A stretch of 64,000 nt of DNA from a virus (Duplodnaviria > Heunggongvirae > Uroviricota > Caudoviricetes): IMG/VR virus record IMGVR_UViG_2541047873_000001. One strand, written 5' to 3'. The notes beneath the pieces were generated by a model. The model saw only the letters and a list, made by a program, of their open reading frames with translations, searched no databases and was not told the origin of the DNA. The translations under genes were made by a program, and so were the position numbers. Of the stretch, positions 19,247 through 49,472 are shown piece after piece (positions within the stretch are counted from its first letter, which is position 1; each line of letters opens with the position of its first letter).

Positions 19247-19288
19247 AATGTATACCGACTCTGTTTTGTTCCGAGCGGTAAAATAATA

Positions 19289-19319
19289 TGTTAGAAAATT
19301 AAAATCAATATTCTAACAC
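19289..19319. promoter_or_regulatory. pair of C1 operator-like sites
   Basis: tgttagaaaattaaaatcaatattctaacac: two inverted copies of the TTCTAACA core between two leftward operons. Confidence 0.5.
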
Positions 19320-19350
19320 GGTTATGAGTGCATAAACGATGTGTTCAGGA

Positions 19351-20037: not shown

Positions 20038-20345
20038 GCGGCAACCTTCTCCCGCAGCCAGATACAAACCGGGCCATCTTCAGTGTCATGAATAGAGCCA
20101 ACAAACCATCCTTCGCCCTCTGGTCGCTCTGGTTCCCAGGCGGCAATATCGGGACCATCTGCGTCCAGATTAAAATGATCTTCATCCATACTGCGAATAG
20201 TCCACTGAAGATTATTTTCCTTCATCCAGGCGTCAAATTCCTCAGTGGATATATATTCACGATCTGCGCAAAACTTTTCATACTCCGGATGTGTCCAGCA
20301 GCCATATTCATCACGTTCTACCGGCATTTCTTTAATGATGCTCAC
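20034..20345 (-). CDS. hypothetical protein
   Basis: 103 aa, overlapping starts and stops in a tight leftward operon. Confidence 0.45.
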
Positions 20346-20566
20346 TCTTCATCCTCCAAGTCGGCAACGGCCTCCATCACATCAGAACCGCGAATAACCT
20401 CAAAAGCACGGCAGGCCATTTCAAACACCTGTTGTTCTTGCGGATGCGGTGACTCCCAATACTTAAAACCAGGTCGATGCTCGTAACCCAACATGGAATA
20501 AAAATCGCCAGCAAGTTCAATCGCGGCATCAACAAGTTCGCGATTTGTCATCGTCTGTTCTGTCAT
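20342..20566 (-). CDS. hypothetical protein
   Basis: 74 aa, translationally coupled in the operon. Confidence 0.4.
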   Translation of the reverse strand: MTEQTMTNRELVDAAIELAGDFYSMLGYEHRPGFKYWESPHPQEQQVFEMACRAFEVIRGSDVMEAVADLEDEE

Positions 20567-20838
20567 TTTGTTTTCTCCTGTCTGAACATCACTATCATCA
20601 GGTCGCCTTTTGTCGCTATCCTGGCTGTTGTACCTGGTTCAATGCGGCTAAGCTCAAATGCGTCATAGAACGCTTCTAATGCCTTCTGGCGTAGTTCCTG
20701 TTTGCGCCGTTTTTTCCACTGTTTTAGGAAAATGGAACCCAGCCATCGCCATGTACGGGACATGATGTAAAGCCAACCGAGAAGTGCCAGACCGGTATTT
20801 AGGAGCGTATCGATCGTTATTGTCGTGTCGATATTCAC
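20563..20838 (-). CDS. small membrane protein
   Basis: 91 aa with one transmembrane helix (TLLNTGLALLGWLYIM) and basic stretch. Confidence 0.45.
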   Translation of the reverse strand: MNIDTTITIDTLLNTGLALLGWLYIMSRTWRWLGSIFLKQWKKRRKQELRQKALEAFYDAFELSRIEPGTTARIATKGDLMIVMFRQEKTK

Positions 20839-21545
20839 TGGCTGCCTCCTTTGCGAAGCTGTTCAGCAATACTTACGCATATCTCTGCGCCTCTAATCAG
20901 CCCCGGAACGTTCTTGTTTGGCCCAACTTCACCATCGACAAAATCAATCATCGCGTTACGAGCCATATCCACGCCCTGCGCACGTACTTCAGCCAGGAAA
21001 GCATCGGTGGCTGGGGTGTCAACACGGATACTGTCGCGCAAGATGAAAAATGCATTGAGCATTCCAGTCTCTGGCACTTCATCCTGATGCTTCTCATACG
21101 CATCAAGAGCCTTCATCATCTCAGCTCCGAATGGTTGAGGGTGCACAGACTTCAGCTCCGCATTCTCCGCCGCCAGCACCACGCGTTCGCTCTCCAGTTC
21201 TGTAATGCGCCGTCTTGCAGCATCCAGTTCAATCGACAATTTTCCCAACTGCTCTTTATGCTTCTTGTATTCCTGATATGCGTGCCAAGACTGACCTTTG
21301 CGCACACTATCCGTGATATCAGTAATCTGTTCTGGTGTTAGCGTGGTCAGTGGCTGTGCTGGGAAAATCAGCACTTTCCCGGCATCCCAATCAAAACCCA
21401 CCTGAATTGACTGAACCTCAACTGATGGTGTTGAACCGATGCGACCAGGCGAATGAACAACGATCGTTACATTCATATCGCGACGATGGCTGTGGTTGTT
21501 GGACAAAATACGATTCACCAACTCCGAGAATTTGGAAAATTTCAT
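20835..21545 (-). CDS. Ea22-like coiled-coil protein
   Basis: C-terminus ...[10 protein letters not shown] shared with the 22550-23224 product (…AQLRKGGNQ); coiled-coil centre. Confidence 0.55.
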
Positions 21546-21907
21546 GCTGATTCCCTTTGCTCTTCCTGGATAATGTTGTTGCAATCTTTCACGCACTCGT
21601 TGCAGATGAAAACGTTGTCCCCGGCAATTAACTTTTTAACGGTGTGCTGGGATTTGTTGCAGAAGCTGCAATAAAGCGTTGGACTGGCTGATACGGATGG
21701 TGCGCCAGATGTCAGCCGCGCGATGTCGTTCTTGCGACGCAATATCACACGGCTGCACTCGACCAGCATCTCCGGGGATATATCCTCCTCCGTGGCGAGC
21801 GCCTCCAGACGTTCGAGCAAGCGAAATACTTTTTCCTGGGTGATTGCAGAATGCGATGTGGTCATCTCACTCTCCTTTGAGGCGAATGCCAGCGGCACGG
21901 GAATCAT
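21542..21907 (-). CDS. small protein with ClpX-type zinc-binding domain
   Basis: 121 aa; C-terminal [35 protein letters not shown] matches the ClpX N-terminal C4 zinc-binding domain. Confidence 0.6.
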
Positions 21908-22553
21908 TCCATCGCTTTACTTCTTCACGAATTACGTCAATGCATTCTTTCGAATCCATTAGGTAATCTTCATCAAAAAGCCTTTCCTGTTCGTTTTCTA
22001 TCGCAACAATGATTGCTTCAACTAACTTTTGTGCCTGAGAACCACTTTCTAACTCTGCAATGCGCTTCTCTGCGGCTTCCAGCTTCTCGCGCATATCGTC
22101 AACGTACTCGACCAGAGATCCGCCAGCAGGAATTTCGCACTCCTCGACCAGTTGGAAGTAGATATCAGCTGCGGCCCGTGTGTTGCTATGCCTAGCGTCG
22201 CCCATCTCACCTTCACGAAGAGCATCGCGTTCGGCGGTAAGATTGGCTATTTTGCTGTCTTTGCCTTCAAGCTCAACGCGCAGCTTCCCTACCGTTAGCG
22301 CAATATCCTCGTTCTCCTGGTCGCGGCGTTTGATGTATTGCTGGTTTCTTTCCCGTTCACCCAGTAGTGCCAGCACGGTTTCTGGTCCGGCCAGAAATTT
22401 GAAGGCGTTGAGCGCATCAATATCCACACCGTAATCTTTAAGTTCCTGTTCACTTAACAAATCATCATCAGCTGGCAACATTAACAGGCGTTCCATTGCT
22501 GGAATTGCACGTTCCGCCGCCTCACGCAGTGCCTGGTAATTAATTTCGCTCAT
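21867..22553 (-). CDS. Ead/Ea22-like protein
   Basis: 228 aa; N-terminal [16 protein letters not shown] paralogous to the 16679-17410 product. Confidence 0.65.
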
Positions 22554-23224
22554 TGGTTGCCTCCTTTGCGAAGCTGGGCAGCGAACCTATCAGCTGCATC
22601 CGCGCAAGCAGAAGCAACGGAATCAAAAAATGGATCATCTCCTGTATCGCGCATCGTCAAAGCGAATGCCTCCACCCCTTGTGCCTGTATTTCTACAAGG
22701 GATGCCTTAGATGTACTGCTTTTCGCCTCGCCTAATTCGTTATGAGCGATGTTCGCTATACATGCGATGTCTATATCTGGATGATTAATTGGGCAATGGC
22801 TAAGAATTGCCTCAAGTGCTGCTTTTTTGCTTTGGCATTCCGCCACCAGCGCCCCGCAATTGCTTTCCAGCTCTGCAATACACTTTTTAGCGGCCTCCAG
22901 CTCAACACGCAGATTCTCAAGCGTTAGAGCCTTCTCCACGTTCTCGTCCAGCAGTTCAATCACATCAGGATCGCTACCATCAACTACTGATATGCGCGAA
23001 TTTTTGTAATGCTCGTCAGCATAAGTTCGTCCAGTTTTGAAGCATCCGTCATCCTCCATGCCGGAACAGGCATAAACAACATGTGATCCAGATATGCGCT
23101 GCATTGACATTTCCTCGCCACAAACAGGGCATTTAGGCGCTGGTTTCGGTGAATAACGTTCACGTAACGGATAGTAAAGCTCGATCTCCGCCAGTTGCTC
23201 TGGCGTTAAACCTTCAGACTTCAT
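22550..23224 (-). CDS. Ea22-like protein with N-terminal zinc ribbon
   Basis: 224 aa; CPVCGEE...C..C motif, coiled coil, Ea22-type C-terminus. Confidence 0.55.
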   Translation of the reverse strand: MKSEGLTPEQLAEIELYYPLRERYSPKPAPKCPVCGEEMSMQRISGSHVVYACSGMEDDGCFKTGRTYADEHYKNSRISVVDGSDPDVIELLDENVEKALTLENLRVELEAAKKCIAELESNCGALVAECQSKKAALEAILSHCPINHPDIDIACIANIAHNELGEAKSSTSKASLVEIQAQGVEAFALTMRDTGDDPFFDSVASACADAADRFAAQLRKGGNQ

Positions 23225-23531
23225 GTACTCTCCTTTCGAAATAAACGTACTGATTAATCATTCCCAGGGGCATTTCGAGTTTTTCTGCGATCTCACGGCG
23301 GGGAACACCACACTGATGAAGCTGCCGCGCCAGTTCTATATCGCTCTGCCGGTATTTGGCTGACTGGTGAAAGTCTCCTTTCAGAATCATGCTGATCCGC
23401 AGTTGCCGCGCTTTAGTCCTGACAGCACCACCGGTACGCCCGATCAGTCTCCCAATACCCTCGACTGTCATAGTCCCGGCGCACTGGCGGAGTATCATGA
23501 TTTCTGCCCTTCCCCATCCCCGCCAGCTCAC
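23214..23531 (-). CDS. small HTH DNA-binding protein
   Basis: 105 aa with HTH-like segments (TVEGIGRLIGRTGGAVRTKARQL, GVPRREIAEKL). Confidence 0.45.
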   Translation of the reverse strand: MSWRGWGRAEIMILRQCAGTMTVEGIGRLIGRTGGAVRTKARQLRISMILKGDFHQSAKYRQSDIELARQLHQCGVPRREIAEKLEMPLGMINQYVYFERRVHEV

Positions 23532-24166
23532 GCAGAACTCCTTCTAACCAAAAGAACGCCATCTTCAGAAACAACGTTGCAGGACTTCAGGTAATTCATT
23601 GCCTCTTTCGGTAATGGATTCTTTGGATCGGCGCTTGCCAGGGATTTCGATAACCTCATGATAAATTTGATCATTACCTTCTGACGGAGCTTGTGCTCAT
23701 GAGATGCAGACAGGTAATAGGAAATGGTATGGGCTAAACGCTCACGAAGCTGTTCTGTGCCGTGATATACAGCAGCGATATCACGCAGTGCATTGACCAG
23801 TTCCCGGTAAATATGCGGAGCAACCTGGCATTCAATGTTGGTTGGTGACTCATAAATTACATTCAGCCCCAGCTTTTGAGCCAGCTCGTGCTCTGCACGA
23901 GCGCCAACTGATTCCTCCCACCCCTTGAGCAAATAGACCGCATTAGCCGAACGCACCATTGCAAGGCAAATATCCATGTATTCGCTCTGGCAGAGGCCAG
24001 CAGGTAACAGCGCCGGATTCAGAACAATATGCCCTACCTCCATCAGCTCTTTTGCTTTCGAAAAAAACGCTGTGCGGTTGTAGTCGGGATAACCAGTCAT
24101 CGGACCCGCGATGTAAATTTTCATAATGCGTTTTGACATCAAAGTTTCCCCAGGAACGTTACGCAA
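23528..24166 (-). CDS. DUF4406-like (nucleoside deoxyribosyltransferase-like) protein
   Basis: Internal start MKIYIAGPMTG...YN...F is the DUF4406 signature; C-terminal extension shares a domain with the 15056-15508 product. Confidence 0.55.
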   Translation of the reverse strand: MRNVPGETLMSKRIMKIYIAGPMTGYPDYNRTAFFSKAKELMEVGHIVLNPALLPAGLCQSEYMDICLAMVRSANAVYLLKGWEESVGARAEHELAQKLGLNVIYESPTNIECQVAPHIYRELVNALRDIAAVYHGTEQLRERLAHTISYYLSASHEHKLRQKVMIKFIMRLSKSLASADPKNPLPKEAMNYLKSCNVVSEDGVLLVRRSSA

Positions 24167-24335
24167 AAGTTGATGAGAGCAAAGAGTTCAATGCCCAGCT
24201 CAAACAACGCCAGGACAGTGAAAAACAGGGCATATAGCAACCCAATTTCTGTACCGGATTGCTGGTGGATTGCACTTATTGCGACAAGCATCATGACCTC
24301 CTGATATAGCGTCTGAAAAAAAGTATCTTCATTTT

Positions 24336-24367
24336 GTGTTAGAAAATCAATTTTGATTTTCTAACAC
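24336..24367. promoter_or_regulatory. palindromic double C1 operator-like site
   Basis: gtgttagaaaatcaa ttttgattttctaacac: perfect 32 bp palindrome of two operator cores between the leftward operon and ref. Confidence 0.6.
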
Positions 24368-24411
24368 ATTTGATCAACCATAGCGGCGATGTAGACAAAC
24401 CGGGTATTTCT

Positions 24412-24987
24412 ATGAAGCAAAGCTATTGGGAGAAACAGACACAAAAAGCCCTGCAAAAACTGGCTGATCCGAAATGGCGGGAGGAACAAAGGGCAAAGCG
24501 TCTTCAGCAAGCTCAACGCCAGCAGCAGCGTGCGCGAGAAAAAGCCGCATCGCCTGAATATCGGCAAAAGAAAATTGAAAAAGCGAAGCAATATGAACAG
24601 CGAAGAAAAGAGAAGGCCGCTTCTGCTCCTGTCAAAAAAACTCGCGCGTCACGCGGCCTGAAAGGCAGAACACTCACAGCAGATGAGCGCCGGATACAAA
24701 CTGCCATCGGTGCTCTCCCCTGCATTGCCTGCCATATGCACGGACAGCATAGCCCTGTGGTATCCCTGCACCACATCTTCGGAAGAACAGCAGAGAACGC
24801 GCATAAATACGTCCTCCCTTTGTGTAAATGGCACCATCAACACGCAGCGCCAGCAGAGATCCGCGAGCAATACCCCTGGTTGGTTCCTGTTCATGCTGAT
24901 GGAAAAATAGGCGGCAAAGCAGATTTCAGGCGGCACAATGCTGATGAAATGACGTTGTATCAGATGGTGACTGAATTAATAAATTAA
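24412..24987 (+). CDS. ref: Ref-like HNH endonuclease (recombination enhancement function)
   Basis: Lys/Arg-rich N-terminus then HNH core GALPCIACHMHG...SLHHI.GRT...PLCKWHHQ resembling P1 Ref; operator-controlled as in P1. Confidence 0.7.
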   Translation: MKQSYWEKQTQKALQKLADPKWREEQRAKRLQQAQRQQQRAREKAASPEYRQKKIEKAKQYEQRRKEKAASAPVKKTRASRGLKGRTLTADERRIQTAIGALPCIACHMHGQHSPVVSLHHIFGRTAENAHKYVLPLCKWHHQHAAPAEIREQYPWLVPVHADGKIGGKADFRRHNADEMTLYQMVTELIN

Positions 24988-25592
24988 TTTTCTAACATTT
25001 TAAGTTGAATTATGAGATCCACCGTTGTACATTCACAACCGATTGGTACACCGGTCAACTTTTTGAGACAAACCGTTTGGTTTTTCGTATGATTGCCGCC
25101 GCCATACCAATGGCGGTGCAATATAGGTGGCTGAAAAGCCCCCGTTGACTCACGGTGTTCCAGCCTTTATTGCGCCGCCACCAGACCGTGGAACAGTCGA
25201 TGGCGGCTCCGAAAGCAAGGAGTCACTACACTATGAACAGCTACTGTCTTTTCCCATCACTCGTTGTCCGCCACTCACGCGATAATCTGCATTCTTTACT
25301 CGCGCTGGGGGTGTCAAAATGACCGTTCGCTACCTCAACTTTCAAATCCAGAACATCACTGGCGGTTGCTATGACTGGTTTGTCACTCTCGGAAAAGAAG
25401 TGATCACCGGGAAGCTGGATGAAGTGAAAGCTAAAGCAATGGCCTACGCCTGCAAGCAAGCCCAAAAGAAGAAAAGAAAAGCATAAGAAAACACACAGTT
25501 GCGCCCTGGCATTATCGTGGGGTATATTTCTACGGCACCTTAGAAAAACGGGTGCCGGGATTGGAACCCCGGATAATGCAAAAGGCGACACA

Positions 25593-25616
25593 GACGCCGA
25601 AAGCGTCTTTTTTTGT
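25593..25616 (+). terminator. rho-independent terminator
   Basis: gacgc-cgaaa-gcgtc hairpin followed by T7. Confidence 0.7.
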
Positions 25617-25639
25617 GTCATGCCATCGCACAGCCATGC

Positions 25640-25790
25640 GTAGCGTTTAGCTCAGAGATCAATGGTAGTGCTGGCTGGGCTGCCGAAAGGCAGGCCGGTT
25701 CCCTTTTGCGCCGGTAGTTCCAACCCAGTCAGTGCTACCGCCATTGAGATTGGAACCTCACGCGGTAGCTCCTTAAATTAGCAAAAGGAG
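25640..25790 (+). ncRNA. c4-like structured regulatory RNA candidate
   Basis: No ORF; 16 bp stem (25664-25679 with 25724-25739) enclosing hairpins; repeated GGTAG/CTACC elements complementary to the region just ahead of the downstream RBS; position matches P1 c4. Confidence 0.35.
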
Positions 25791-25799
25791 GCTGCCAAT

Positions 25800-26015
25800 A
25801 TGGCTACTATCCCTACCCCAACTCATTCTGAATTTATCTGGCGTTTCTATTCCTGCCAAAAACACCTCTATATCTGCGTAATGGCTGCTACCGAAGCAGA
25901 GGCGCGCTCATACCTTCCCGAAGAACCCTGTATTTTTGCTGCTCGCTTCACTCTTGATGCGATGGAGATCCTCAATTACTGGAATCTGCCGATGAACTGC
26001 GTGGAGGTGCACTGA
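25800..26015 (+). CDS. small protein in Icd position
   Basis: 71 aa ORF with strong RBS (aaaggagg) overlapping the antirepressor start, as icd overlaps ant in P1; no sequence-level call. Confidence 0.3.
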   Translation: MATIPTPTHSEFIWRFYSCQKHLYICVMAATEAEARSYLPEEPCIFAARFTLDAMEILNYWNLPMNCVEVH

Positions 26016-26956
26016 TGAATCTGTCCATCTCTCAAAAAGCGACAATGACCAGCATTGAGATCGCGGAACTGGTGGGAAGTCGTCACTCTGATGTTAAACG
26101 CAGCATCGAAAGACTTGTTGCTAAAGGAGTTATCCAACATACGCCATTGGCTACAGTTGAGAATAATCAATCACTTAGCCCTAATAAATACACAAAAGCC
26201 TATTTCTTCGAAGGCGAACAAGGCAAGCGCGATAGTATTATCGTCGTCGCGCAGCTCTCTCCGGAATTCACCGCCCGGCTGGTGGACCGCTGGCGCGAAC
26301 TGGAGAATGTCAGGGGACCGTTAAAATCAAAAGCCGAAATCCTGGCTGAAATGGCGCAAATGCATCTTGAGCATGAACGCAGGATCAACGCCGTAAATGC
26401 CCAGGTAGCCGAGGTATCGGCACAAGTGTCCAGGGTCACCGAAACACTTGAGCAGATCAAGAAAGGCAATATTCCAGAAGGCTACATTGGCTATCGCCAG
26501 TTGGCGGCAAAATGCGGCCTGACTGAAGCCAAATGCCGCAACCTGGTCAACGCTTACCGGATACCCACTGATACGCATGAGTTTTTAACTCCCGACGGTT
26601 TGCTTGCGCGACGCTCCATTGTGGCCCTGGCCCCCTTCCGGAAAGCCTTTAAGCAGGTTATGTCGGAGGCAGAACCACGTAACAAACGCTGGTATCATCC
26701 CAGGATGGGGCTATTTCAGGCCATTCACCATCCTGTGCCTGAAAGTCCAAAGGCAAACCTGTCGTTGCATACCGCCAGAGAGAAGATTAAAACAGGGTAT
26801 GCAACCGTATGCCGTCGAGCATCCTGGCCTGAAAGTGTCTGGGTATGGCCCGAAAGAGGCTCACGGAAAAACTGGCGCACCATTCGCGACGGCAAGATCT
26901 GTGCGATTGATTTACAGCCAGAAGATGTAGCAGCGACCGACTGGATTGTTAGTTAA
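26015..26956 (+). CDS. antirepressor, Rha-family N-terminal domain
   Basis: 313 aa; N-terminal MTSIEIAELVGSRHSDVKRSIERL typical of Rha-type phage regulatory proteins; hairpin terminator at about 26964-26986. Confidence 0.65.
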   Translation: MNLSISQKATMTSIEIAELVGSRHSDVKRSIERLVAKGVIQHTPLATVENNQSLSPNKYTKAYFFEGEQGKRDSIIVVAQLSPEFTARLVDRWRELENVRGPLKSKAEILAEMAQMHLEHERRINAVNAQVAEVSAQVSRVTETLEQIKKGNIPEGYIGYRQLAAKCGLTEAKCRNLVNAYRIPTDTHEFLTPDGLLARRSIVALAPFRKAFKQVMSEAEPRNKRWYHPRMGLFQAIHHPVPESPKANLSLHTAREKIKTGYATVCRRASWPESVWVWPERGSRKNWRTIRDGKICAIDLQPEDVAATDWIVS

Positions 26957-27012
26957 TAGATTTGCCCCGGTCATGCCGGGGCTTTAACTACTAAGTGACC
27001 GGACACAGCAAA

Positions 27013-27333
27013 ATGTATGCCACGAAAAAAATTGATTTCACTTATTCTTCCGCCACAATTGAGCGGCGCTTCACCCTCATTAGAGAGTTGGAACTGTCAA
27101 AAGTCTGGTATCAAATTCTACTGGATGAAGAGTTCTCACTGATGATAATGGCTAAAAAAGAAGCAATGCCGAATGACCGGCATAAAGTCATTGCCAGCCT
27201 TGACCTGGTGACAAACAGATACTGGGAGACAGAGGAACTGCGTGAAGCGGGAGTAATTCGTGACCTGATGGAGAGTTCCGTTCCCCGCCGCTATCGTGCG
27301 GGAAACGAAATCTCCGTGATTAAAGGGGCTTAA
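27013..27333 (+). CDS. hypothetical protein
   Basis: About 106 aa from MYATKK; no recognisable domain. Confidence 0.4.
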   Translation: MYATKKIDFTYSSATIERRFTLIRELELSKVWYQILLDEEFSLMIMAKKEAMPNDRHKVIASLDLVTNRYWETEELREAGVIRDLMESSVPRRYRAGNEISVIKGA

Positions 27334-27809
27334 AGCTCACCAGCACGCTGTTTTTCAAGCGTAGATTTAACATTGGGCGCTTTCCCTTTAAAAGAATGGA
27401 AAGTGCCACATTTTTCTGTTTTAACCTCGCGCAGAGCTTCGCCATCGGCGTTCTGCCATTGATGAGATAACGTCATATCACCGCGAGAAGGAACATCCAG
27501 CGAGTACAACGTGTAAGTTCCCCCCATCTCGGCATACTCCTGGAACACATAGCTCATTACGTCAGATTCAGTTTTCCGGTGCGCGTTATCAACCTTATTC
27601 CCATTCAGAAATATGGCGTTCGGATAGATTTTTATATCAAACCTACCGCACTTTACCTGCAAATTCCCAGCATTAGCAATCAAAGGAAAAAACATTAATG
27701 CCGCTATAGCCAGCTTATTCAAGTTTGATGTCTTTGTTGAAGAAAATGGTTTCTCTTTTTTTATGCGTATCATTTCATTAACTCCAGACATTGTTGTCTT
27801 TTCATCCAA
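27330..27809 (-). CDS. secreted or lipoprotein-like hypothetical protein
   Basis: N-terminal signal peptide (KLAIAALMFFPLIANA). Confidence 0.5.
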   Translation of the reverse strand: MDEKTTMSGVNEMIRIKKEKPFSSTKTSNLNKLAIAALMFFPLIANAGNLQVKCGRFDIKIYPNAIFLNGNKVDNAHRKTESDVMSYVFQEYAEMGGTYTLYSLDVPSRGDMTLSHQWQNADGEALREVKTEKCGTFHSFKGKAPNVKSTLEKQRAGEL

Positions 27810-27816
27810 TTTGAGG

Positions 27817-28446
27817 TTAATTAGTACAATTCATTTTTGCAGCGACTTCGGCTACCCCACGATCAATGTAAGGCTGCTCACTTAATATCTTTTGGATCTC
27901 ACTACGAATGCATTCCGCTGTAGGTTGCTTAGGTGCTTGTTTTTGCTTCGCGGATCGTTCAAGTTCCATCATGTTATTGAATCCTGCCACATCACTTTGC
28001 CGAAGCATCCCTTTCCGGATAAGAAACTGCTGCCCTTCAGGCACCCAAGCCAGCATATACAAAGGCTGCAATAGATCTCCCATTCCTTGCTGACGATAAA
28101 GCTCAAACTGCAACACGCCGTTACTTAACACCGACATTGTGTCTTTGGTGGAATACCCTGTCTTTTGTATGGCTTTGCCTGTTTCATCTGCTGCATATGC
28201 AAATACACAGAACTCAATGTTGCTTTTAAAGAATGGCTCTACAGGTTTCAGCGGGATATTTTCTTTCTGGCAATAGTTTGAAACTTCATCAGGCGTATAG
28301 TTTGTTTTGGCGTTTCGCAACACCTTCAGCCCAGCCTCATACTTTGCAGGTAACGCGCCTGCATAGGCAGCATTAAGAGAAACTCCCCCCAATATAACCG
28401 CGAGCACTGCTCCCAAAACCCTTAACTTCACAAAACCATCCTTCAT
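27817..28446 (-). CDS. secreted hypothetical protein
   Basis: 209 aa from MKDGFVKLRVLGAVLAVILGGVSLNAAYA (signal peptide); track ORF extends further upstream. Confidence 0.5.
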   Translation of the reverse strand: MKDGFVKLRVLGAVLAVILGGVSLNAAYAGALPAKYEAGLKVLRNAKTNYTPDEVSNYCQKENIPLKPVEPFFKSNIEFCVFAYAADETGKAIQKTGYSTKDTMSVLSNGVLQFELYRQQGMGDLLQPLYMLAWVPEGQQFLIRKGMLRQSDVAGFNNMMELERSAKQKQAPKQPTAECIRSEIQKILSEQPYIDRGVAEVAAKMNCTN

Positions 28447-36100: not shown

Positions 36101-36117
36101 GTTTTATTTTCTAACAC
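36101..36117. promoter_or_regulatory. C1 operator-like site
   Basis: gttttattttctaacac ahead of the rdgC operon. Confidence 0.5.
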
Positions 36118-40327: not shown

Positions 40328-41287
40328 TCAACCGATAGATTTTAGACCATAGACAAGAGCAAGTTGTGGATCATCAGCAACGAAAAACCTATCGTCACGA
40401 ATGTTTACCTGCTCACGGATAGCATCAGCAACAAGCGGCGCGCCGCCACCAATGACCATAACATGCGTGTATCCTTTGAAATCACTGATCACATCCAGTA
40501 CGCGTGTACGGAGTCGTTCTATGCTTGACGAAATGGCTTTCTTAACATCATCAATAGCTGACGGATCGTTAATATTGTCGGTCAAATAATCCTCATCATC
40601 ACGATTAATGATTAATTGATCGACATTATAATTAGAGGTTTCGGTATTCGCTTTTGCAAGTGCCTGTCTGACCTCTTTAGTTACCAGCGAAACGCCGAGA
40701 TTAGAATCGCCAAATACGCGAGAAACGGCGGTCATTTGCCCGGCGACCATCGACACATCCAGAGTGGTCCCACCAAGATCAACAATAAGCACAGAATGCG
40801 CTGGCACAAGGCTGTCGCACAGACCGATCCCTGCGGGTATTGACTCCGGGCGCACAGTCACTTTTTTGATAGTAAAAACCTGACCTTTGTTAAGGGTGAC
40901 TGGTCGCATCAGGCTGGCCTTTTTCCGCTCAATATTTTTCATGTTGTATTGTGCGTCGTCGTCATAAAACTCTGCCAGTGGCAACGTGACAACTATTTCC
41001 ACTTCTTGAGGCTCAATGCCACTTGTAAGCAGGGCATGATGAACAGCAAGCACATTAAGCGGGCTGTATTGCCATTCAACGTTATTCGTCGGCAGCACAT
41101 CCGGCGAGATCAAGTCATATGAATATTTTTCGTCATCAATGATGTAGTTAAACGGCTTTCCTGCGCCAAATGTGGCGGACCATCCACGTTTAAAACTGTT
41201 CGGACAGATATGGGTTCGAGTTTCCCCGTCTTGTTCCCACAGCATTTTGATATTGGTAGAACCATCGTCGATAAAAATGCGCATCAT
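40328..41287 (-). CDS. parM: ParM actin-like segregation ATPase
   Basis: Internal start MMRIFIDDGSTNIKM matches the ParM/StbA N-terminus; actin-fold phosphate motifs (DLGGTTLD, VIGGGA). Confidence 0.85.
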   Translation of the reverse strand: MMRIFIDDGSTNIKMLWEQDGETRTHICPNSFKRGWSATFGAGKPFNYIIDDEKYSYDLISPDVLPTNNVEWQYSPLNVLAVHHALLTSGIEPQEVEIVVTLPLAEFYDDDAQYNMKNIERKKASLMRPVTLNKGQVFTIKKVTVRPESIPAGIGLCDSLVPAHSVLIVDLGGTTLDVSMVAGQMTAVSRVFGDSNLGVSLVTKEVRQALAKANTETSNYNVDQLIINRDDEDYLTDNINDPSAIDDVKKAISSSIERLRTRVLDVISDFKGYTHVMVIGGGAPLVADAIREQVNIRDDRFFVADDPQLALVYGLKSIG

Positions 41288-41294
41288 ATTGCTC

Positions 41295-41480
41295 CACTTC
41301 TGAGACACATTTGAGAAAGAATTGAATTTTATATGAGAAAACAAAATAAGACCAGAAGTTAGATAGCGTAAAAAGCATCAAACTAGAGATGTAAAAGAGA
41401 CACAAAAGAGACTTATATGACACATGATATACCCACGATACCCATTTGAGACAAATCAGAGACAAATATGAGAAGTAAGA
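41295..41480. repeat. parC-like centromere iterons
   Basis: At least eight copies of (T/A)GAGA(C/A)A at about 10-11 bp spacing upstream of parM. Confidence 0.6.
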
Positions 41481-41536: not shown

Positions 41537-41821
41537 ATGAGTGCAATAGCGACCAGTGACACAGTTTGTTCTGGTCATGGAGGATTCCCTCCGCGACCTG
41601 TAGCAGAAACAGTTTCCTGGTTTACCGTAAATGGAAAGCCAGTGGTTGTAGATGGGGGAGCGTTCCCCAGCCATACTGACGGAAATAGCGCGCACCCCGG
41701 ATCAGCCGTATCGACGCGCTCATGGTTTGCAATAGGCGGGAAAGGAGTTGTTTGTGTGGGAGATCCCCTTTCTTGTGGCTCAGTCATCGCCAATGGTGAG
41801 GCAATTTTTCAGGTGTCATAA
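41537..41821 (+). CDS. PAAR-domain protein
   Basis: 94 aa; Gly/His-rich with repeated (D/S)GG/GHG elements and conserved Cys typical of PAAR spike-tip proteins. Confidence 0.75.
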   Translation: MSAIATSDTVCSGHGGFPPRPVAETVSWFTVNGKPVVVDGGAFPSHTDGNSAHPGSAVSTRSWFAIGGKGVVCVGDPLSCGSVIANGEAIFQVS

Positions 41822-42615
41822 TGCTTGATTCAATCGCTGAAGTTAATGCATTCAAAATTCTAAATGCATCTGGCACAACTACGCCTGCATCTATCACGCT
41901 AAGTAAAACAGCGTCATCCAATGCCAGTTCTCTGGAAGAGAATATCCAGGCTCTTATCCTGAAGGATAAAGCATACCCGGCGTCGGTGGTTTCATGGGTC
42001 AATCAGCTTTCTGTCTTTTCAGAACAACTGAAAACTGTCAGTGCAGAAGCAACCAATTTAGCCGACTCGCTGTCTCCGTATACTTCGCCAACTGAATTAC
42101 TTCAGATGAAAATTGGCTGGGAATGTTACGTCAAAGGTAATGAGTTATCTCCTCCGCCAGAATTTGCTCTCGTAACAGTTATGGGAGATACCCTGCATCC
42201 GCAATCGCTTATTGACGCGTTGGCTGCATTTGAACTGGTGCCAATCACTTCAGCCATGACTGCTATAAATGCAAAAGTTCAGGCGTCAAGCGGGGAGGCT
42301 TCAGGCAACGGAAGTTCCACCGGAACAACACAGCAACCAGCACTAACAGAAGAAGAGATCAAAGCACTAAAAGACGCTGTGGAAGCAGCAACAGAACAAA
42401 TAAATGCAATAAACAACACGAGCAGTAGTCTCTCAACACTTGCACAGCAAGTTAAGGACTCTACAGGAAAAGCCAAACAGGGACTGGAGAATGCTGTAGC
42501 TATTACGTTAACCGGTTCTCTACTGGGCGATGAAGTAATGAGTCCGGCAATCAGTTTGATCATGCCACAAGGTGTAATCGATGCGCTCCAAAGCAACGCT
42601 AAAAAGGAACCATAA
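41821..42615 (+). CDS. hypothetical protein coupled to PAAR
   Basis: 264 aa; ATG overlaps the PAAR stop (TAATG); Ala/Ser/Thr-rich, no recognisable domain. Confidence 0.5.
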   Translation: MLDSIAEVNAFKILNASGTTTPASITLSKTASSNASSLEENIQALILKDKAYPASVVSWVNQLSVFSEQLKTVSAEATNLADSLSPYTSPTELLQMKIGWECYVKGNELSPPPEFALVTVMGDTLHPQSLIDALAAFELVPITSAMTAINAKVQASSGEASGNGSSTGTTQQPALTEEEIKALKDAVEAATEQINAINNTSSSLSTLAQQVKDSTGKAKQGLENAVAITLTGSLLGDEVMSPAISLIMPQGVIDALQSNAKKEP

Positions 42616-42686
42616 CCACACCATTTAAGCCCATAAATGGTTACAAATTGGTACACATATCACACCAACAAAAAAATCTGAAGAGG

Positions 42687-43145
42687 ATGGTTTTGAAAAA
42701 GATAATTTTGATAGTAGTTGCGCTTTTAGCCATTTATGGAATTTACCGTACTACGGCGGCAGTTATCGATCACATCAGGTATATCCGTTCCCTGGAAGAC
42801 TCAAAATCACAACTTGAAAGCGAGAACAACACGCTTTCTACCGCATTGCAGTTAAGTGAAAAGTCGCGATCTGCCATGATGGCTGAAAACGAAAGAATTA
42901 AAACACTGGAGAAGGAGTACCAGCGCAAAACAGCAGAACTGAATACCAGCCTGATCAAACAACGGGAGGAAAGCCAGAATGAAATCAATCGTCTTGAAAC
43001 TGCGTTACGCAATGCCGGGGTTAATGATGTGCGTGTGCCTGATGACGTTATCAGGATGCAGCGGGAACGGGCAAAAGAAATCAATCAGCGTGCCAATGCA
43101 AATTACCGTAGAAGCCACCAGCAAACCGCAGGGAAATCTGATTGA
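42687..43145 (+). CDS. i-spanin (Rz-like)
   Basis: N-terminal transmembrane helix then coiled-coil periplasmic domain; start chosen at MVLKK after RBS. Confidence 0.6.
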   Translation: MVLKKIILIVVALLAIYGIYRTTAAVIDHIRYIRSLEDSKSQLESENNTLSTALQLSEKSRSAMMAENERIKTLEKEYQRKTAELNTSLIKQREESQNEINRLETALRNAGVNDVRVPDDVIRMQRERAKEINQRANANYRRSHQQTAGKSD

Positions 43146-43302
43146 TTATACCCCTTGCATAGTGCCAGAGGACACGCCTGTGCTGTTAAACAAGTATCCG
43201 GCATACACTGAACAGTTATTCAGCACTATCGATGAATGCAACCGACGAAACGCACTGAATAACCAAAGGAATAGGGAGATTTGGGAAGGGAAGGGGGGTT
43301 AA
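42979..43302 (+). CDS. o-spanin (Rz1-like lipoprotein), overlapped architecture
   Basis: Signal peptide with lipobox LSGC; begins in an alternate frame inside the i-spanin gene and extends beyond it. Confidence 0.6.
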   Translation: MKSIVLKLRYAMPGLMMCVCLMTLSGCSGNGQKKSISVPMQITVEATSKPQGNLIDYTPCIVPEDTPVLLNKYPAYTEQLFSTIDECNRRNALNNQRNREIWEGKGG

Positions 43303-43485
43303 GGCTCCTGAAGCCAGATGTCCTGGCTGTCAGCTTCTTCGAAACCGTGACAGACGTTAAAGTCACTCAAGCGATACTGGCGCTGACGGCCTCTATTTCG
43401 CTCATGCCAATGCATATATCCACCAGCAAATTGAACCGCCCCGGGAATCCTGGAGACTAAACTTCCTGAGAAAGAGGTAAACAGG

Positions 43486-43812
43486 ATGACTAAAAATACT
43501 CGTTTTTCCCCCGAAGTCCGTCAACGGGCAGTCCGTATGGTTCTGGAAAGTCAGAGCGAATATGACTCACAATGGGCGACAATTTGTTCCATTGCTCCAA
43601 AGATTGGCTGTACGCCGGAGACTCTGCGTGTCTGGGTTCGCCAGCATGAGCGGGATACCGGGGGCGGTGATGGAGGGCTCACCACCGCTGAACGTCAGCG
43701 TCTGAAAGAGCTGGAACGTGAAAATCGTGAACTGCGCCGCAGTAACGATATCCTTCGCCAGGCTTCCGCTTATTTTGCGAAGGCGGAGTTCGACCGCCTC
43801 TGGAAAAAATGA
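43486..43812 (+). CDS. IS629 transposase OrfA
   Basis: 108 aa HTH/leucine-zipper protein, recognised as IS629 OrfA by eye. Confidence 0.9.
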
Positions 43813-44699
43813 TGCCACTGCTGGATAAGCTGCGTGAGCAGTACGGGGTCGGACCGCTATGCAGCGAACTGCATATTGCCCCGTCAACGTATTACCACTG
43901 TCAGCAACAGCGACATCATCCGGATAAACGCAGTGCCCGTGCGCAGCGCGATGACTGGCTGAAGAAAGAGATACAGCGCGTATACGATGAAAATCACAAG
44001 GTATACGGTGTGCGTAAAGTCTGGCGTCAGTTGTTACGGGAAGGTATCAGAGTGGCCAGATGCACTGTGGCACGTCTCATGGCGGTTATGGGACTTGCCG
44101 GTGTTCTCCGGGGTAAAAAGGTCCGTACGACCATCAGCCGGAAAGCCGTTGCCGCAGGCGACCGCGTAAACCGTCAGTTCGTGGCAGAACGACCTGACCA
44201 GCTGTGGGTGGCTGATTTTACTTACGTCAGCACATGGCGGGGCTTCGTCTATGTGGCGTTCATCATTGATGTGTTTGCCGGATACATCGTGGGGTGGCGG
44301 GTCTCATCGTCCATGGAAACGACATTCGTGCTGGATGCACTGGAGCAGGCGTTATGGGCCCGTCGACCGTCCGGCACGGTCCATCACAGTGATAAAGGTT
44401 CTCAGTATGTATCGCTGGCCTACACACAGCGGCTTAAGGAAGCCGGATTACTGGCATCAACAGGAAGTACAGGCGACTCGTATGACAACGCGATGGCGGA
44501 GAGCATCAATGGTCTTTACAAAGCGGAGGTAATACACCGTAAGAGCTGGAAAAACCGTGCAGAAGTGGAACTGGCCACACTCACGTGGGTGGACTGGTAT
44601 AACAATCGACGATTGCTGGAAAGGCTGGGCCATACTCCTCCGGCAGAAGCAGAAAAAGCTTATTATGCTTCCATCGGAAACGATGATCTGGCAGCCTGA
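43809..44699 (+). CDS. IS629 transposase OrfB (DDE catalytic domain)
   Basis: 296 aa in the -1 frame relative to orfA, overlap at the A-rich aaaaaatg region consistent with programmed frameshifting. Confidence 0.9.
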
Positions 44700-45081
44700 G
44701 TTCACAGATAAAACACTCTCCAGGAAACCCGGGGCGGTTCAAATGCCAGCGGACAATCGCTATAGTCGATGTAGCCAATACCATTACCCAAACGCGCTTC
44801 GCGCGCCCCGGCTTTCCAGGACAGCAGAAAAGAGTCACGATCTGCCAGCATGACTACAAAATCATCTGGATCGCCTATGCAGTGAAGAATGCCTGCCTTG
44901 CATAACTGTTTGAGTGCCTTGGACTGACTCAGGATGTCTTCACCGTAATACTGAAAACAATCATCAACAATAGCGGGATAGCCAGCGGGTGGATTCAGGC
45001 TGGTTGGTATAGCTGACGCGATAGCCAGCATTAAACGATATTGTGTTTTCGATGGGTTCGCGTGACTCATGTTTCCTCTAC

Positions 45082-45474
45082 TCACTGTCTCCATGCATTT
45101 TTCAGCTCCGGAATATCAGCCATTTCAACCAGCTTCCGAAGCCCCGCGCTGACCTTCCCATTACCAACCGCAGCAAGCCAATCCCTTACTGACTTCGGCA
45201 TATAAAGAGTGGTGGTTACAGGATCTTCCACTCTTACAGGTGTGCCGATTTGAGGCCACTTAACAGATGCCAAAACGTCAGAAGGCGGGGTAAGCGCGGG
45301 AACATTAAGAATAGCCTTTCCTGAATGGAGAATCACGATTCGTTCAGCCAGGGAAAGAATGTCTCTTTCAGTAAGGATTGATGACAGTTGAGCTTCTACA
45401 AGGCATCTGCTGCTTGTATTCAGAGAATGGCTTTTAGCACCATTTTTGTATGAAACGAAGATCTTGTACGCCAT
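45082..45474 (-). CDS. hypothetical protein
   Basis: 130 aa; first gene of the leftward operon fronted by operator-like sites at 45491-45554. Confidence 0.5.
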   Translation of the reverse strand: MAYKIFVSYKNGAKSHSLNTSSRCLVEAQLSSILTERDILSLAERIVILHSGKAILNVPALTPPSDVLASVKWPQIGTPVRVEDPVTTTLYMPKSVRDWLAAVGNGKVSAGLRKLVEMADIPELKNAWRQ

Positions 45475-45490
45475 TTGTTCTAATGTTTTA

Positions 45491-45554
45491 TGTTAGAAAA
45501 TTAAGATTAAACCATACTAACACAAGATTGTTAACGAAAATTATTTTTCTAATG
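45491..45554. promoter_or_regulatory. C1 operator-like sites in divergent promoter region
   Basis: tgttagaaaattaag (inverted) and ttttctaatgc cores between the leftward operon and the capsid gene. Confidence 0.45.
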
Positions 45555-45633
45555 CTATTGACTAAATAACAAAGTGAGTATTGTCACCTCGTCAAAAGAA
45601 TCTTCACGCCGCGCCCGAATTTAGGGTTTAACC

Positions 45634-47331
45634 GTGAACAAGAACATTGAGCCAGCTCGTAAGCGCGAGCGCGAGATTATGAATCGGGCGGCAAGCGTCA
45701 TGGCTATGACCGTCGATCCAACCACTGATGCTGCCGGTAACATGATTACCGACAACGAAGTGATGATGGCTAACCTGGAAAAAGCTATCCAGAAAGAGCC
45801 AATGTTTGAAGGCGTTGGACCAGAAGCAGCTCGCCAGATCATTGGTAGCTGGGCCATGTCTATTCATGAATACAAACGCCAGCATGGGCATTATCCGGCA
45901 AGCGATGTATTAGCCAACGCCCATGTAGCACTTGAGCGCCTGATGATGGAGTCCGCTAAAGAGACGCATGAAGGCGCTGGCAAAGCCATGTTTGAATCAG
46001 TAGCCAAGGACATGCGCACCTCCGATGGTGTAATGAAGGTTGCACAATATGCCGCACTGATCCTGCCTGCTTCTCTCGGCGCAGCCACCAGCGACGCATG
46101 TACGTTTATCCCTTGTGATCGTGATGAAACCAATATTTACGAGCTGACCAACGTTGCTGGTACAAAATTCGGTACATTCGAGCAGGGCGATGAACTGAAC
46201 ATGCAGTCTGCTGGCGTGTATTCGCAGATGAAACGCCTGTACATCCTGACCGAAAAAGGCGATGGCAGCAAAACCACCTTCCAGTTTGATATCCAGAACT
46301 TCGAAGGCCAGGCCTGCCCGCTGCGCCAGGGCTACAACAAACTGCTGATTAACCGCAAACCGTCCAAAGTAGATGATGGTGACGGCAACCTGTATTTCAA
46401 CGACAAAGACGTCAACGGCAACTCTTTCTCTGCTACAGCAAAAGTTAAATACGATACCGGCGTTATCGATATCACCTTTAATGAAGCACCAGCAGAAGGC
46501 ACAGAAATCGCTGTTCAGGTTGAAATCAACATTGAACGCAATCCGAGCCTGATACCAGTCATTAACCAGTCCATGCGCAATTACGCCCTGCGCCCGTCGC
46601 AGTACGTGATCGCATCCGAACATACGGTTATGACAGCATCTGACCTGAGCCGTGAACACGGACTCGAACTGGCAGCATTGCAATTCTCCGCAATGCGCAA
46701 CTGGATTTCCCACGAAATCGATATGATGCGCCTGCGCACTCTGGTATTCCACACAGTTTACGGTCGTGAATTTGATGTGGCACTGCCAGAAGCGCAGAAC
46801 TACGAATCGTGGGTTGGTTTAATTCGCCATGTAGTGAACGCGCTGTCACAGGACATGGCTGACCGCACCCTGACTACCGGTATCCGTGGTGGCTTTGCTG
46901 GTGGCGATGCTGCTAACTTCCTGCGTTCCTTACCGCCGCAGCACTTCCAGTTGGCACCGGGCTATGTACAGTCGCCGTACATTCAATACATCGGTACCCT
47001 GTTTGGTTCCATTCGTATCTACGAAGTGCCGAAGCCTATCTGCAAACAATTCCAGGAACATGGCTACGACTTTGGCCTGGACGACATCTACTTCTATGGT
47101 CGTGGCGAAGGCATTGGTAAAGCTGGCCTGGTCGCTGGTGATGCTGTGCCTGCTATTCCGTATGTCCACGAAACAAATCCAGCCCTGGTAAACCGCACCA
47201 CTCTTTGGGGTACAGCAATCAACGATGTGCATCCGCGCAACGGTGAGAACTATTTCACTCGCCTTCGCCTGACACGTTCGAAAGAAGGTGCGATTGACAT
47301 GTTGAGCGGGCAAATCAACGAAAAAAAGTAG
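45634..47331 (+). CDS. major head protein candidate
   Basis: 565 aa from GTG start; size and position ahead of the tail genes match P1 gp23; no domain-level confirmation. Confidence 0.5.
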   Translation: MNKNIEPARKREREIMNRAASVMAMTVDPTTDAAGNMITDNEVMMANLEKAIQKEPMFEGVGPEAARQIIGSWAMSIHEYKRQHGHYPASDVLANAHVALERLMMESAKETHEGAGKAMFESVAKDMRTSDGVMKVAQYAALILPASLGAATSDACTFIPCDRDETNIYELTNVAGTKFGTFEQGDELNMQSAGVYSQMKRLYILTEKGDGSKTTFQFDIQNFEGQACPLRQGYNKLLINRKPSKVDDGDGNLYFNDKDVNGNSFSATAKVKYDTGVIDITFNEAPAEGTEIAVQVEINIERNPSLIPVINQSMRNYALRPSQYVIASEHTVMTASDLSREHGLELAALQFSAMRNWISHEIDMMRLRTLVFHTVYGREFDVALPEAQNYESWVGLIRHVVNALSQDMADRTLTTGIRGGFAGGDAANFLRSLPPQHFQLAPGYVQSPYIQYIGTLFGSIRIYEVPKPICKQFQEHGYDFGLDDIYFYGRGEGIGKAGLVAGDAVPAIPYVHETNPALVNRTTLWGTAINDVHPRNGENYFTRLRLTRSKEGAIDMLSGQINEKK

Positions 47332-47472
47332 CAGTGGCGAACGTGTCAGTTTCACCAACGGCAATTGAAGTAAACGAAGGTGAAACTATCGCCGCAAGCA
47401 CTTCAAAGACACGAAAAACACCCAAAAAGAAGTAAGACCAGCCCCTGAATAGGGGGCTATATGGAGGAAAAA

Positions 47473-47751
47473 ATGGCTGATATTCAGGTAACTATTACAC
47501 CTTCCGATGCGACAGATAAATCTTTCACTATCGAGTCAGATCATCCGGAAATTGTGAGCGTAGATGGCAAAACCTGTACCGCACTTAAAGCAGGTCAGGC
47601 TGTGCTCACTATCAAGACCACCGATGGCAATAAAACGGCAACATGCACCGTAACGGTTAATGAAGCCACAAAGAACGTAAGCGCCGTCAGCGTTGAACCG
47701 TCAACCAAAGAAGTGACGGTAGGTGACAGCTTCACGGTCGGCGAAGCCTGA
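47473..47751 (+). CDS. Ig-like (Big_2-type) domain protein
   Basis: About 92 aa; beta-rich with SVDGKTCTALKAGQAVLTIKTTDGNKTATCTVTV typical of Big_2 folds. Confidence 0.5.
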   Translation: MADIQVTITPSDATDKSFTIESDHPEIVSVDGKTCTALKAGQAVLTIKTTDGNKTATCTVTVNEATKNVSAVSVEPSTKEVTVGDSFTVGEA

Positions 47752-47816
47752 TAAAAGTCTCCCCATGCTAATGGGGAGACTTCTCTCATCCGCTCGATAA
47801 AGAGGAAAAGAGCAGC

Positions 47817-49472
47817 ATGAATAAAATTGGTTTTTCTGTTGGTCAGGCGGCGGGCGTTGCGGTAGCGGACGTAAATGCCGATGCTATTCTGTCCAACACA
47901 TCTGGCGGTGCTTCCGTCTTTGCCGGGCTGGTGATTTCCCGCAGAGGAGCACCAGGCAAGGTTTTGCAGGTTACAGCAGCCAACTATCAGAGCGTGTTAG
48001 GTTCACCTCTTCACCCGCGCACCGGGGCCGCATTTGAACCATATCGCCACGTTGAACGCGCAGTAAAAGGCGGCACCGGTTATGTGGTTCGCGTATGCGC
48101 AAAAGACATGAAAGTACCGGGCATTGCCGTTTCTGTTCAGGCCAGGTCGAAAAGCACCAAGTCAGCAAAAACTCTGCAAATTGCTCCGACCGAAGCAACG
48201 GTAAATATCGGCGATACACTGACCGTTCGTGCCGTTTCTGGAGCCACTTCTCCGGTAACTTTCGCTGCAAGCGAAACACCTGAAATTTCCGGCAGTGAAC
48301 TGGCTATTTTCTACATAAAGGACGGTGATGCTTCGACAAACCGCACGTTATCACTGACCCGTGAGGACGAAGAAAATGACCTGTTCACTCTGGAACTGAA
48401 AGAGACACAGACCGATGGTTCTGTAGAAACATTGGAAAGCTACCAGGTTTCTTTCGATCCGGATGCAACGAACGATATGGGCCAGCCAGCATGGATTCCT
48501 GCGTTGTTAGAAAGTCAGTCCTCCAGGCTTGGAGCTGTACTGGCTGATGGTGCCGAAGACTCCGCTCACTTGCTGACTTTCGAAGATGTAGCGTTTGAAG
48601 GCGGTACAGATGGCGATCTGTCCTCAATTGACGCTGATGATTATCTGAAAGCGTTAGAGGTTCTCGAAGCGTCAGAAGTTAATTATACCGCGCTGCTTTC
48701 TCTGGGCTGCTACGACGCATCCGTGCTGGCAAAAATCAATTCGCTGGCAGAAGACGTTCGCGTGGATATGTTCTACGACCTGAAATGTGCTCAGACTGGT
48801 GAAAACGCTATCGCAGAAGCTAAATCACATGGTTTCGGCAAATCCCACCAGGCTGCACGTTATCACTTCCCGTACTCATGCCGTGACACTTTCAGCGGTA
48901 TGAATGTGGTTTACGGAATCAGTTGTGATGCGTTCGTGGCAAAAGCGAAAGGCGTTGCGCTTGTGTCTGATGTAGGCGGCTGGCATTACGCCCCGGCTGG
49001 TCTGTCTCGGGCAATCATTGATCGCCAGAACATCACCAGACTCTCCGGAATTGGCACAATCGATCGTGAAGCGTATGTGACCGCTCGTATTAACCCTGTA
49101 AGCGTTGCAGCGGATGGTTCTGTCTACATCGACGACTCCCTGACGACATACAGCAAAAATAACTATCTGCGATTCCAGCACGTTTCATCACTGATGAATG
49201 CAATTGCCCGCAATTTCTATGAAGTTGCTCAGGCAATCAAGCATGAACCTGATGGCGTTACGCAGGAAAGTCTGACTAACGCACTGACAGATCTTCTGGA
49301 CCGTTTTTATGCGGCTGGTGCGCTGGTTACACCACGCGATGAATCTCAAGGTTCTGACCCTTATGTGGTCAAGGTAACTCAAAAAGACATCGACTTGTGG
49401 GAAGTGGAATGGTCCGTGTGCCCAACAGGCACTGCCCGTCGAATCCTCGGCAAACCAATCCTGATGCGTTGA
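47817..49472 (+). CDS. tail sheath-like structural protein
   Basis: 551 aa with an Ig-like insert; assignment by size and position only; a capsid role is not excluded. Confidence 0.4.
   Translation: MNKIGFSVGQAAGVAVADVNADAILSNTSGGASVFAGLVISRRGAPGKVLQVTAANYQSVLGSPLHPRTGAAFEPYRHVERAVKGGTGYVVRVCAKDMKVPGIAVSVQARSKSTKSAKTLQIAPTEATVNIGDTLTVRAVSGATSPVTFAASETPEISGSELAIFYIKDGDASTNRTLSLTREDEENDLFTLELKETQTDGSVETLESYQVSFDPDATNDMGQPAWIPALLESQSSRLGAVLADGAEDSAHLLTFEDVAFEGGTDGDLSSIDADDYLKALEVLEASEVNYTALLSLGCYDASVLAKINSLAEDVRVDMFYDLKCAQTGENAIAEAKSHGFGKSHQAARYHFPYSCRDTFSGMNVVYGISCDAFVAKAKGVALVSDVGGWHYAPAGLSRAIIDRQNITRLSGIGTIDREAYVTARINPVSVAADGSVYIDDSLTTYSKNNYLRFQHVSSLMNAIARNFYEVAQAIKHEPDGVTQESLTNALTDLLDRFYAAGALVTPRDESQGSDPYVVKVTQKDIDLWEVEWSVCPTGTARRILGKPILMR

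Follow-up and report, generated by a model that had tools for sequence, protein, structure and literature searches.

IS629 splits the orf53 homologue in a putative early operon of a D6-like phage-plasmid

The 64,000-nucleotide stretch of DNA analysed here – IMG/VR virus record IMGVR_UViG_2541047873_000001, a member of the Caudoviricetes, referred to below as the window – carries a copy of the insertion sequence (IS) IS629 inside a minus-strand gene that equals orf53 of phage D6. We consider it highly probable that IS629 transposed into the distal gene of an early operon resembling D6 orf52–orf53, and that the event gave a likely null, neutral allele which is recent and confined to one isolate. 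An initial annotation, made from the letters of the sequence, had described a 1310-bp IS629 with a 3-bp aat duplication, a gene whose reading frame returns once the IS is taken out, an operon with this gene in second place, fronted by operator-like sites and converging on an outer spanin (o-spanin) gene, and a prophage in which the insertion may have inactivated an early function or may be recent. This picture stands, with two qualifications that concern the inactivation and the prophage.

IS3-family elements move by copy-out/paste-in transposition and generate target duplications of 3–4 bp. The element at 43432–44741 is an intact IS629, given its complete IS3 anatomy and its identity to annotated copies of IS629: it matches, at 99.5% over 1310/1310 bp, elements that depositors labelled ‘IS3 family IS629’ in the Stx-phage records LC567824.1 and LC567828.1, and many E. 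coli genomes hold copies 100% identical to it. Its terminal inverted repeats (Table 1) are imperfect and 25 nt long – a repeat-finding tool gives 26 nt with 92% complementarity – and both ends begin with TGAACC, the termini being 5'-TG...CA-3', as is characteristic of the family. The inverted-repeat pattern is expected by chance 0.00 times, and the window holds one copy only. The two transposase genes lie on the plus strand, antiparallel to the interrupted gene, and their open reading frames (ORFs) overlap, orfB (start 43809) being in the −1 frame relative to orfA (start 43486). The AAT duplication is perfect on both flanks and, at 3 bp, within the 3–4 bp range of IS629, so that the size and the duplication first proposed are both confirmed.

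Excision in silico of the IS together with one AAT copy leaves a stop-free minus-strand ORF of 459 nt (152 residues) that runs from 45070 to 43299. The frame is broken when 1, 2, 4 or 5 flanking bases are deleted instead, and is kept at 0 because the IS plus its duplication measures 1313 nt and the IS alone 1310. The resulting empty site aligns in one piece to the 92.8-kb plasmid NZ_LR890273.1 (99.5% identity), to 100 further E. coli plasmids, to plasmids of Salmonella, Shigella and E. marmotae, and, at 86% nucleotide identity, to phage D6; within E. coli, 101 of the 101 matches are on plasmids and 0 on chromosomes. Annotation was read for five IS-free relatives – WP_024214619.1, D6 orf53 and WP_000020025.1 among them – and shows one coding sequence of 459 nt here in each, where two separate genes would have spoken against the initial annotation. 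The reconstructed protein is identical to WP_024214619.1 at 152 of 152 residues, the genes differing by a single, synonymous nucleotide. Since IS-free relatives carry a single coding sequence identical to the reconstruction, the two halves are one gene, equal to phage D6 orf53. More distant evidence agrees: in an exhaustive profile search, homologues with as little as 26% identity are each one protein, of about 135–152 residues, that covers both halves, and a one-chain predicted structure spanning the two is confident (predicted local distance difference test, pLDDT, 93.5). That confidence came only with the inclusion of distant homologues, a first model built from 11 close ones (pLDDT 49.5) having been unusable. 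Coincidental continuity of two separate genes, in whose favour one can say only that an arbitrary join has a 1 in 3 chance of keeping the frame, is refuted by the IS-free annotations, the empty site in 101 E. coli plasmids, the distant full-span homologues, the complete identity to WP_024214619.1 and the confident single-chain model, and its probability is next to nothing.

The insertion lies after codon 110 of 152, directly behind an invariant stretch, YIDYSDCPLAF (F110). In its present state the reading frame continues into the IS, where it stops at 44702, and the product has 122 residues – 110 native and 12 encoded by the IS (EPPRVSWRVFYL) – while an alternative upstream ATG at 45094 gives an IS-fused product of 130 residues. 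The 122-residue form has been deposited as WP_024191212.1 / EQV90349.1; both entries are IS-fusion truncation products of the 152-residue protein, and the gene behind them is to be treated as a pseudogene. Lost with residues 111–152 are the invariant G113, H116, H137 and G138 and the nearly invariant C136, F139 and Q150. Because 42 C-terminal residues, invariant ones included, are removed from a constrained protein, the insertion is probably a null allele. The suggestion that an early function may have been inactivated thus stands as far as the loss of invariant residues goes; the loss of function itself is something that we infer. No polar effect on other genes would be expected, because orf53 is the last gene of the operon and faces the convergent spanin gene.

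How constrained the protein is can be read from a comparison with D6, in which the two window halves were set against positions 3651–4109 of the compared D6 locus. The orf53 sequences differ by 32 synonymous and 2 non-synonymous codons (98.7% identity at the protein level, 92% at the nucleotide level), a ratio that argues for strong purifying selection on orf53. The same comparison gives 54 synonymous and 26 non-synonymous differences for orf52 (80% protein identity), and the inner spanin (i-spanin) is 85% identical to its D6 counterpart; by protein identity, the interrupted gene is the most constrained of its neighbourhood.

The protein has no match in Pfam, NCBIfam or PADLOC and belongs to PHROG 8101, a family of ‘unknown function’. 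Its N-terminal half (residues 8–75) may bear a weak resemblance to winged-helix DNA-binding proteins (MarR/SarA/ArsR-like). Among 50,697 phage records, homologues were found only in D6 and in Vibrio phage douglas 12A4 (33% identity); for P1 and P7 the same search, at E ≤ 0.01, found no counterpart of orf53. A 59%-identical homologue does occur in metagenomic DNA, on a P7-like element that also encodes a C1 repressor (PF27008) and an integrase (L006, 4380–6861; L007, 429–2915), downstream of ref (RecA_dep_nuc). There the orf53 homologue is part of the ref operon, next to c1 and the integrase gene, and is not accompanied by an orf52 homologue, on which ground the notion of orf52–orf53 as an inseparable pair was rejected. 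By its distribution, orf53 appears to be a separable accessory gene of early-region territory that moves between the early operons of P1-like elements.

The IS-fused, truncated product is found on 1 contig, against 837 contigs with an identical intact 152-residue protein, in a collection of 15 billion proteins, and neither among 5,426 complete E. coli genomes nor among 72,556 PLSDB plasmids is there a place that matches the occupied site over 80% or more of its length. The gene halves are free of secondary lesions, and the IS is identical to other active-looking copies. Given the one contig against 837, the perfect duplication and the lack of decay in the halves, the insertion is recent and specific to this isolate, in line with what the initial annotation had offered as one of its two possibilities.

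The isolate is E. coli KOEGE 73 (195a): the window belongs to its contig KE701393.1 (assembly GCA_000459875.1), whose locus is identical to the window over 41702–48094. All 64 kb of the window are collinear with NZ_LR890273.1, at 97.6–99.8% identity, and from 28 to 64 kb the IS629 copy is the sole interruption relative to that plasmid. At 3.7–9.4 kb stand lpa, pacA, pacB, c1 and dre, laid out as in the D6 immC record AY753669.1, and the c1 product (7001–8038) is 80% identical to the D6 prophage repressor. They are followed, in order, by a ParM/StbA partition system, a PAAR gene (upfC-like), an upfB-like gene, overlapping spanin genes and a major capsid gene resembling P1 gene 23. On the strength of the collinear plasmid, the D6-type lpa–pacAB–c1–dre block, the partition system and the capsid gene, the host element can be assigned to the D6-like, P1-related plasmid prophages – the phage-plasmids – and is not integrated. 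Of the term ‘prophage’, therefore, the prophage itself is upheld and the implied integration is not, with every E. coli match on a plasmid and 64 kb collinear with one. D6-like phage-plasmids are common in E. coli and Salmonella of clinical and animal origin.

Within this element, the interrupted gene has a co-oriented upstream neighbour, the orf52-like gene (45474–45082), whose end is separated by 11 nt from the ATG at 45070, a GAGGAA Shine–Dalgarno sequence lying in the gap; this fits second place in an operon. A word-recurrence scan of the intergenic region upstream of the pair (45475–45633) revealed the word TGTTAGAAAATTAA, which recurs across the window: 11 sites with at most 2 mismatches were found against 0.77 expected, a number that 0 of 100 shuffles reached. 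The sites, from which the consensus TTAATTTTCTAACA(c) was derived, are intergenic, and three pairs of them stand head-to-head, 16 bp apart. Operators of the P1 type were considered and set aside, as the P1 consensus ATTGCTCTAATAAATTT (PMC8546580) has 0 matches in the window within 3 mismatches; the two consensus sequences share a TCTAA core and are alike at 10/17 positions. Before orf52, one exact and one weaker site bracket a candidate promoter. Six relatives, in which the surrounding DNA is about 86% identical, show no change in either hexamer or either operator core, and the operator-like sites noted earlier in front of the operon gain from this as well as from their excess over expectation. 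The motif fits the operator of a diverged, heteroimmune C1, by analogy with P1, and TTAATTTTCTAACA can be put forward as the candidate D6-type C1 operator, with its putative regulon defined within the window. Such a regulon could help to annotate the early genes of D6-like elements.

The course of events might then have been as follows. A copy of IS629 would have transposed into the orf53 homologue, the distal gene of a two-gene early operon on a D6-like phage-plasmid. A D6-type C1, bound to the two sites that bracket the promoter, probably keeps orf52–orf53 silent in the lysogen, and, if the operon is so repressed, a knockout would carry no cost while the plasmid is maintained, which would let the insertion persist. 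The neutrality of the insertion in the lysogen is what we infer from this repression.

Several points weigh against this account. The truncated product keeps the whole of the winged-helix-like N-terminal half and could have partial or dominant-negative activity. A sigma-70 scan did not call the orf52–orf53 promoter, because the −10 hexamer TTTAAT breaks the scan's rule for position 2. Binding of C1 to the motif and the early timing of orf52–orf53 are both read from the layout of the sites and genes. Finally, the source is a draft assembly of the 2013 era, for which a mixed population is conceivable.

A broader reading, to which we give a rather low probability, gives the insertion more weight: orf52–orf53 could form an early module of D6-like phage-plasmids, uncharacterised so far and under C1 control, that provides for instance a regulator or a function aimed at the host or at defences; orf53 would adopt a fold without a known relative beyond its winged-helix-like half, and the induction or the host range of this phage-plasmid may have changed with the IS insertion.

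Selection of the insertion is improbable. Loss of orf53 might relieve a cost or toxicity of leaky early expression, or cripple induction (domestication), or the IS end might drive an antisense RNA. The strong constraint on orf53 speaks for selection, in that its loss cannot simply be taken to leave the phage unaffected. So does a promoter-like TTCAAA-17-TATAGT at 44738–44766 (plus strand), across the right end of the IS and its flank, which points antisense through the orf53 5' fragment and orf52 toward the capsid gene; ends of IS3-family elements are known to supply −35 elements. Yet this site is the 1 found against a shuffle mean of 3.0, and so is not above chance; the truncation occurs on a single contig against the 837 with the intact protein; and the 101 E. 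coli plasmids show no parallel insertions in the gene. A neutral hitch-hike is also the simpler explanation, given C1 repression in the lysogen.

Fainter still is the chance that IS629 entered the plasmid contig only during assembly, by collapse or misplacement of a repeat in a draft genome (GCA_000459875.1). E. coli is rich in IS629-like copies, and misjoins classically arise at repeats. A misjoin, however, would not yield a complete IS with both inverted repeats, a perfect 3-bp duplication and two flanks collinear with the same plasmid, and KE701393.1 has the length (90,569 bp) to be expected of a D6-like plasmid (about 89 kb) that gained 1.3 kb. Transposition of IS629 into the distal gene of the orf52–orf53-like operon remains the reading that we prefer, and the features on which it draws are collected in Table 1.

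Table 1. Positions in the window of IS629, the interrupted gene, its neighbours and the candidate regulatory sites.
Feature	Position	Strand	Basis or remark
IS629 (IS3 family), complete 1310-bp copy	43432–44741	+	boundaries, inverted repeats, 99.5% match to annotated IS629
Left terminal inverted repeat (IRL), TGAACCGCCCCGGGAATCCTGGAGA	43432–43456	+	sequence reading, inverted-repeat and pattern search
Right terminal inverted repeat (IRR), TGAACCGCCCCGGGTTTCCTGGAGA on minus strand	44717–44741	−	sequence reading, inverted-repeat and pattern search
Target-site duplication AAT, left copy	43429–43431		direct repeat; alignments to IS-free plasmid abut/overlap here
Target-site duplication AAT, right copy	44742–44744		direct repeat; alignments to IS-free plasmid abut/overlap here
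IS629 orfA, 108 residues, HTH_Tnp_1	43486–43812	+	PF01527, E = 7e-13
IS629 orfB, 296 residues, HTH_21 and rve DDE integrase core	43809–44699	+	PF00665, E = 8e-28; NF033516 transpos_IS3 (NCBIfam), E = 1e-93
ALIL frameshift-stimulating pseudoknot over orfA/orfB overlap	43767–43883	+	RF01497, full length, 120.2 bits against gathering score 50
Interrupted orf53-like gene, 5' part	44745–45070	−	with AAT 44742–44744, native residues 1–110
Interrupted orf53-like gene, 3' part	43299–43431	−	includes AAT 43429–43431; rest of codon 110, residues 111–152 and stop; now without own start codon
Upstream operon partner, D6 orf52-like, 130 residues	45082–45474	−	translation, D6 comparison, PHROG match (phrog_7830, function unknown)
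i-spanin gene (Rz-like)	42687–43145	+	phrog_214, E = 1e-14
o-spanin gene, lipobox LSGC	42979–43302	+	phrog_456, E = 2e-5
Candidate −35 hexamer TTAACA, orf52–orf53 promoter	45529–45534	−	sequence reading; invariant in 6 relatives
Candidate −10 hexamer TTTAAT, 17-nt spacer from −35	45506–45511	−	sequence reading; invariant in 6 relatives
Operator-like site before orf52, exact TGTTAGAAAATTAA match	45491–45504	+	starts 1 nt downstream of −10, over expected transcription start
Second, weaker operator-like site, 3 mismatches, inverted	45541–45554	−	just upstream of −35; core TTAG.AAAATAA conserved in relatives
Operator-like pair before lpa	3595/3611 (span 3595–3624)		motif scan
Operator-like site before c1	8053–8066		motif scan
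Operator-like site, dre side	9448–9461		motif scan
Operator-like pair before DUF968/HNH gene	19289/19305 (span 19289–19318)		motif scan
Operator-like pair before ref	24337/24353 (span 24337–24366), further site 24984–24997		motif scan
Operator-like site before rdgC-like gene	36103–36116		motif scan

Downstream of the interrupted gene, the o-spanin gene overlaps the i-spanin gene in another frame (42979–43145), which, together with the ‘Rz-like spanin’ PHROG matches, marks a two-component spanin pair. The stop codon of the interrupted gene (43299–43301) overlaps that of the o-spanin gene (43300–43302), whose end reaches 3 nt (43300–43302) into the 3' end of the interrupted gene, so the two genes do converge in the way first described. 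With 107 residues, the o-spanin product has normal length here (110 in D6). A run of G at its 3' end (43288–43293) counts six residues in the window and five in NZ_LR890273.1, where the G5 state lengthens the o-spanin ORF to 126 residues, so that it covers the end of orf53. Ahead of the i-spanin start, an A-run at 42670 also differs from that plasmid by 1 nt; either difference could be a sequencing error in one of the records. For orf52, a guess that the C-terminus forms a ribbon-helix-helix was dropped, being unsupported by Pfam (even at E = 10) or the PDB.

Some further features of the element were noted in passing. The 16-mer AATAACAARGTGAGTA occurs at 45565–45580 and at 8094–8109 (plus strand), that is, ahead of the major capsid gene and again in the c1–dre interval; it could belong to a late (Lpa-type) promoter or to another common signal. 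Relatives strongly conserve the block that precedes the capsid gene. The PAAR-motif protein at 41537–41821 (plus strand), the counterpart of P1 upfC, starts a upfC–upfB–spanin string and adjoins the ParM/StbA-type partition system at 40328–41344 (minus strand), which is not the ParAB of P1. Just upstream of lpa, an ORF of 191 residues (2639–3214, plus strand) is annotated, by collinearity (WP_021551771.1, NZ_LR890273.1), as a member of the Tad2 family of Thoeris anti-defence proteins. The stretch 14150–28010 is a mosaic accessory region, in which short blocks of 96.8–99.7% identity alternate with non-matching cassettes (small ead/Ea22-like and hypothetical genes), in contrast to the 98.9–99.8% identity to NZ_LR890273.1 elsewhere.

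Taken by itself, the insertion, a single occurrence in a gene without an assigned function, matters little. That E. coli strains differ through IS629 copies in their prophage genes is textbook knowledge, and the inactivation of a prophage gene by this element is a well-known phenomenon of which we describe an ordinary, single-isolate case. What it does provide is an isolate, KOEGE 73, that would serve as a natural knockout of a strongly conserved orphan gene, apparently an early one, of D6-like phage-plasmids.

Set beside known systems, the element itself is IS629 as already described (isoforms IS1203 and IS3411), the same in size, inverted repeats, orfA/orfB, ALIL pseudoknot, duplication and preference for prophages, and the insertion site alone is new. 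IS629 is reported to make target duplications of 3–4 bp and to reside mostly (62%) in prophages, IS1203 being an isoform (PMC3271280). The closest parallels are the IS629 insertions in the prophages of E. coli O157:H7 (PMC3271280), which involve the same IS, the disruption of prophage genes, strain-specificity and duplications of 3–4 bp. Those cases, however, concern lambdoid chromosomal prophages, whereas the host element in strain KOEGE 73 (195a) is an extrachromosomal D6-like phage-plasmid.

Phage D6 itself (MF356679.1) has the same order of genes – ParM/StbA, upfC (PAAR), upfB, spanins, orf53, orf52 and major capsid – and differs by degree: orf53 is 98.7% identical at the protein level, c1 80% and the flanking DNA about 86%, and the gene is intact in D6 and in the other relatives examined. 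With P1, the likeness lies in regulation. P1 C1 acts on some 22 dispersed, asymmetric operators and controls lpa (PMC8546580), and one C1 site occludes a ref promoter (PMC4713147); the candidate sites in the window are likewise dispersed and asymmetric, often head-to-head, placed before lpa, ref and c1, and overlapping promoters. The difference from P1 lies in the sequences, none of the sites coming within 3 mismatches of the P1 consensus and the D6-type C1 having no P1 match at E ≤ 1e-5.

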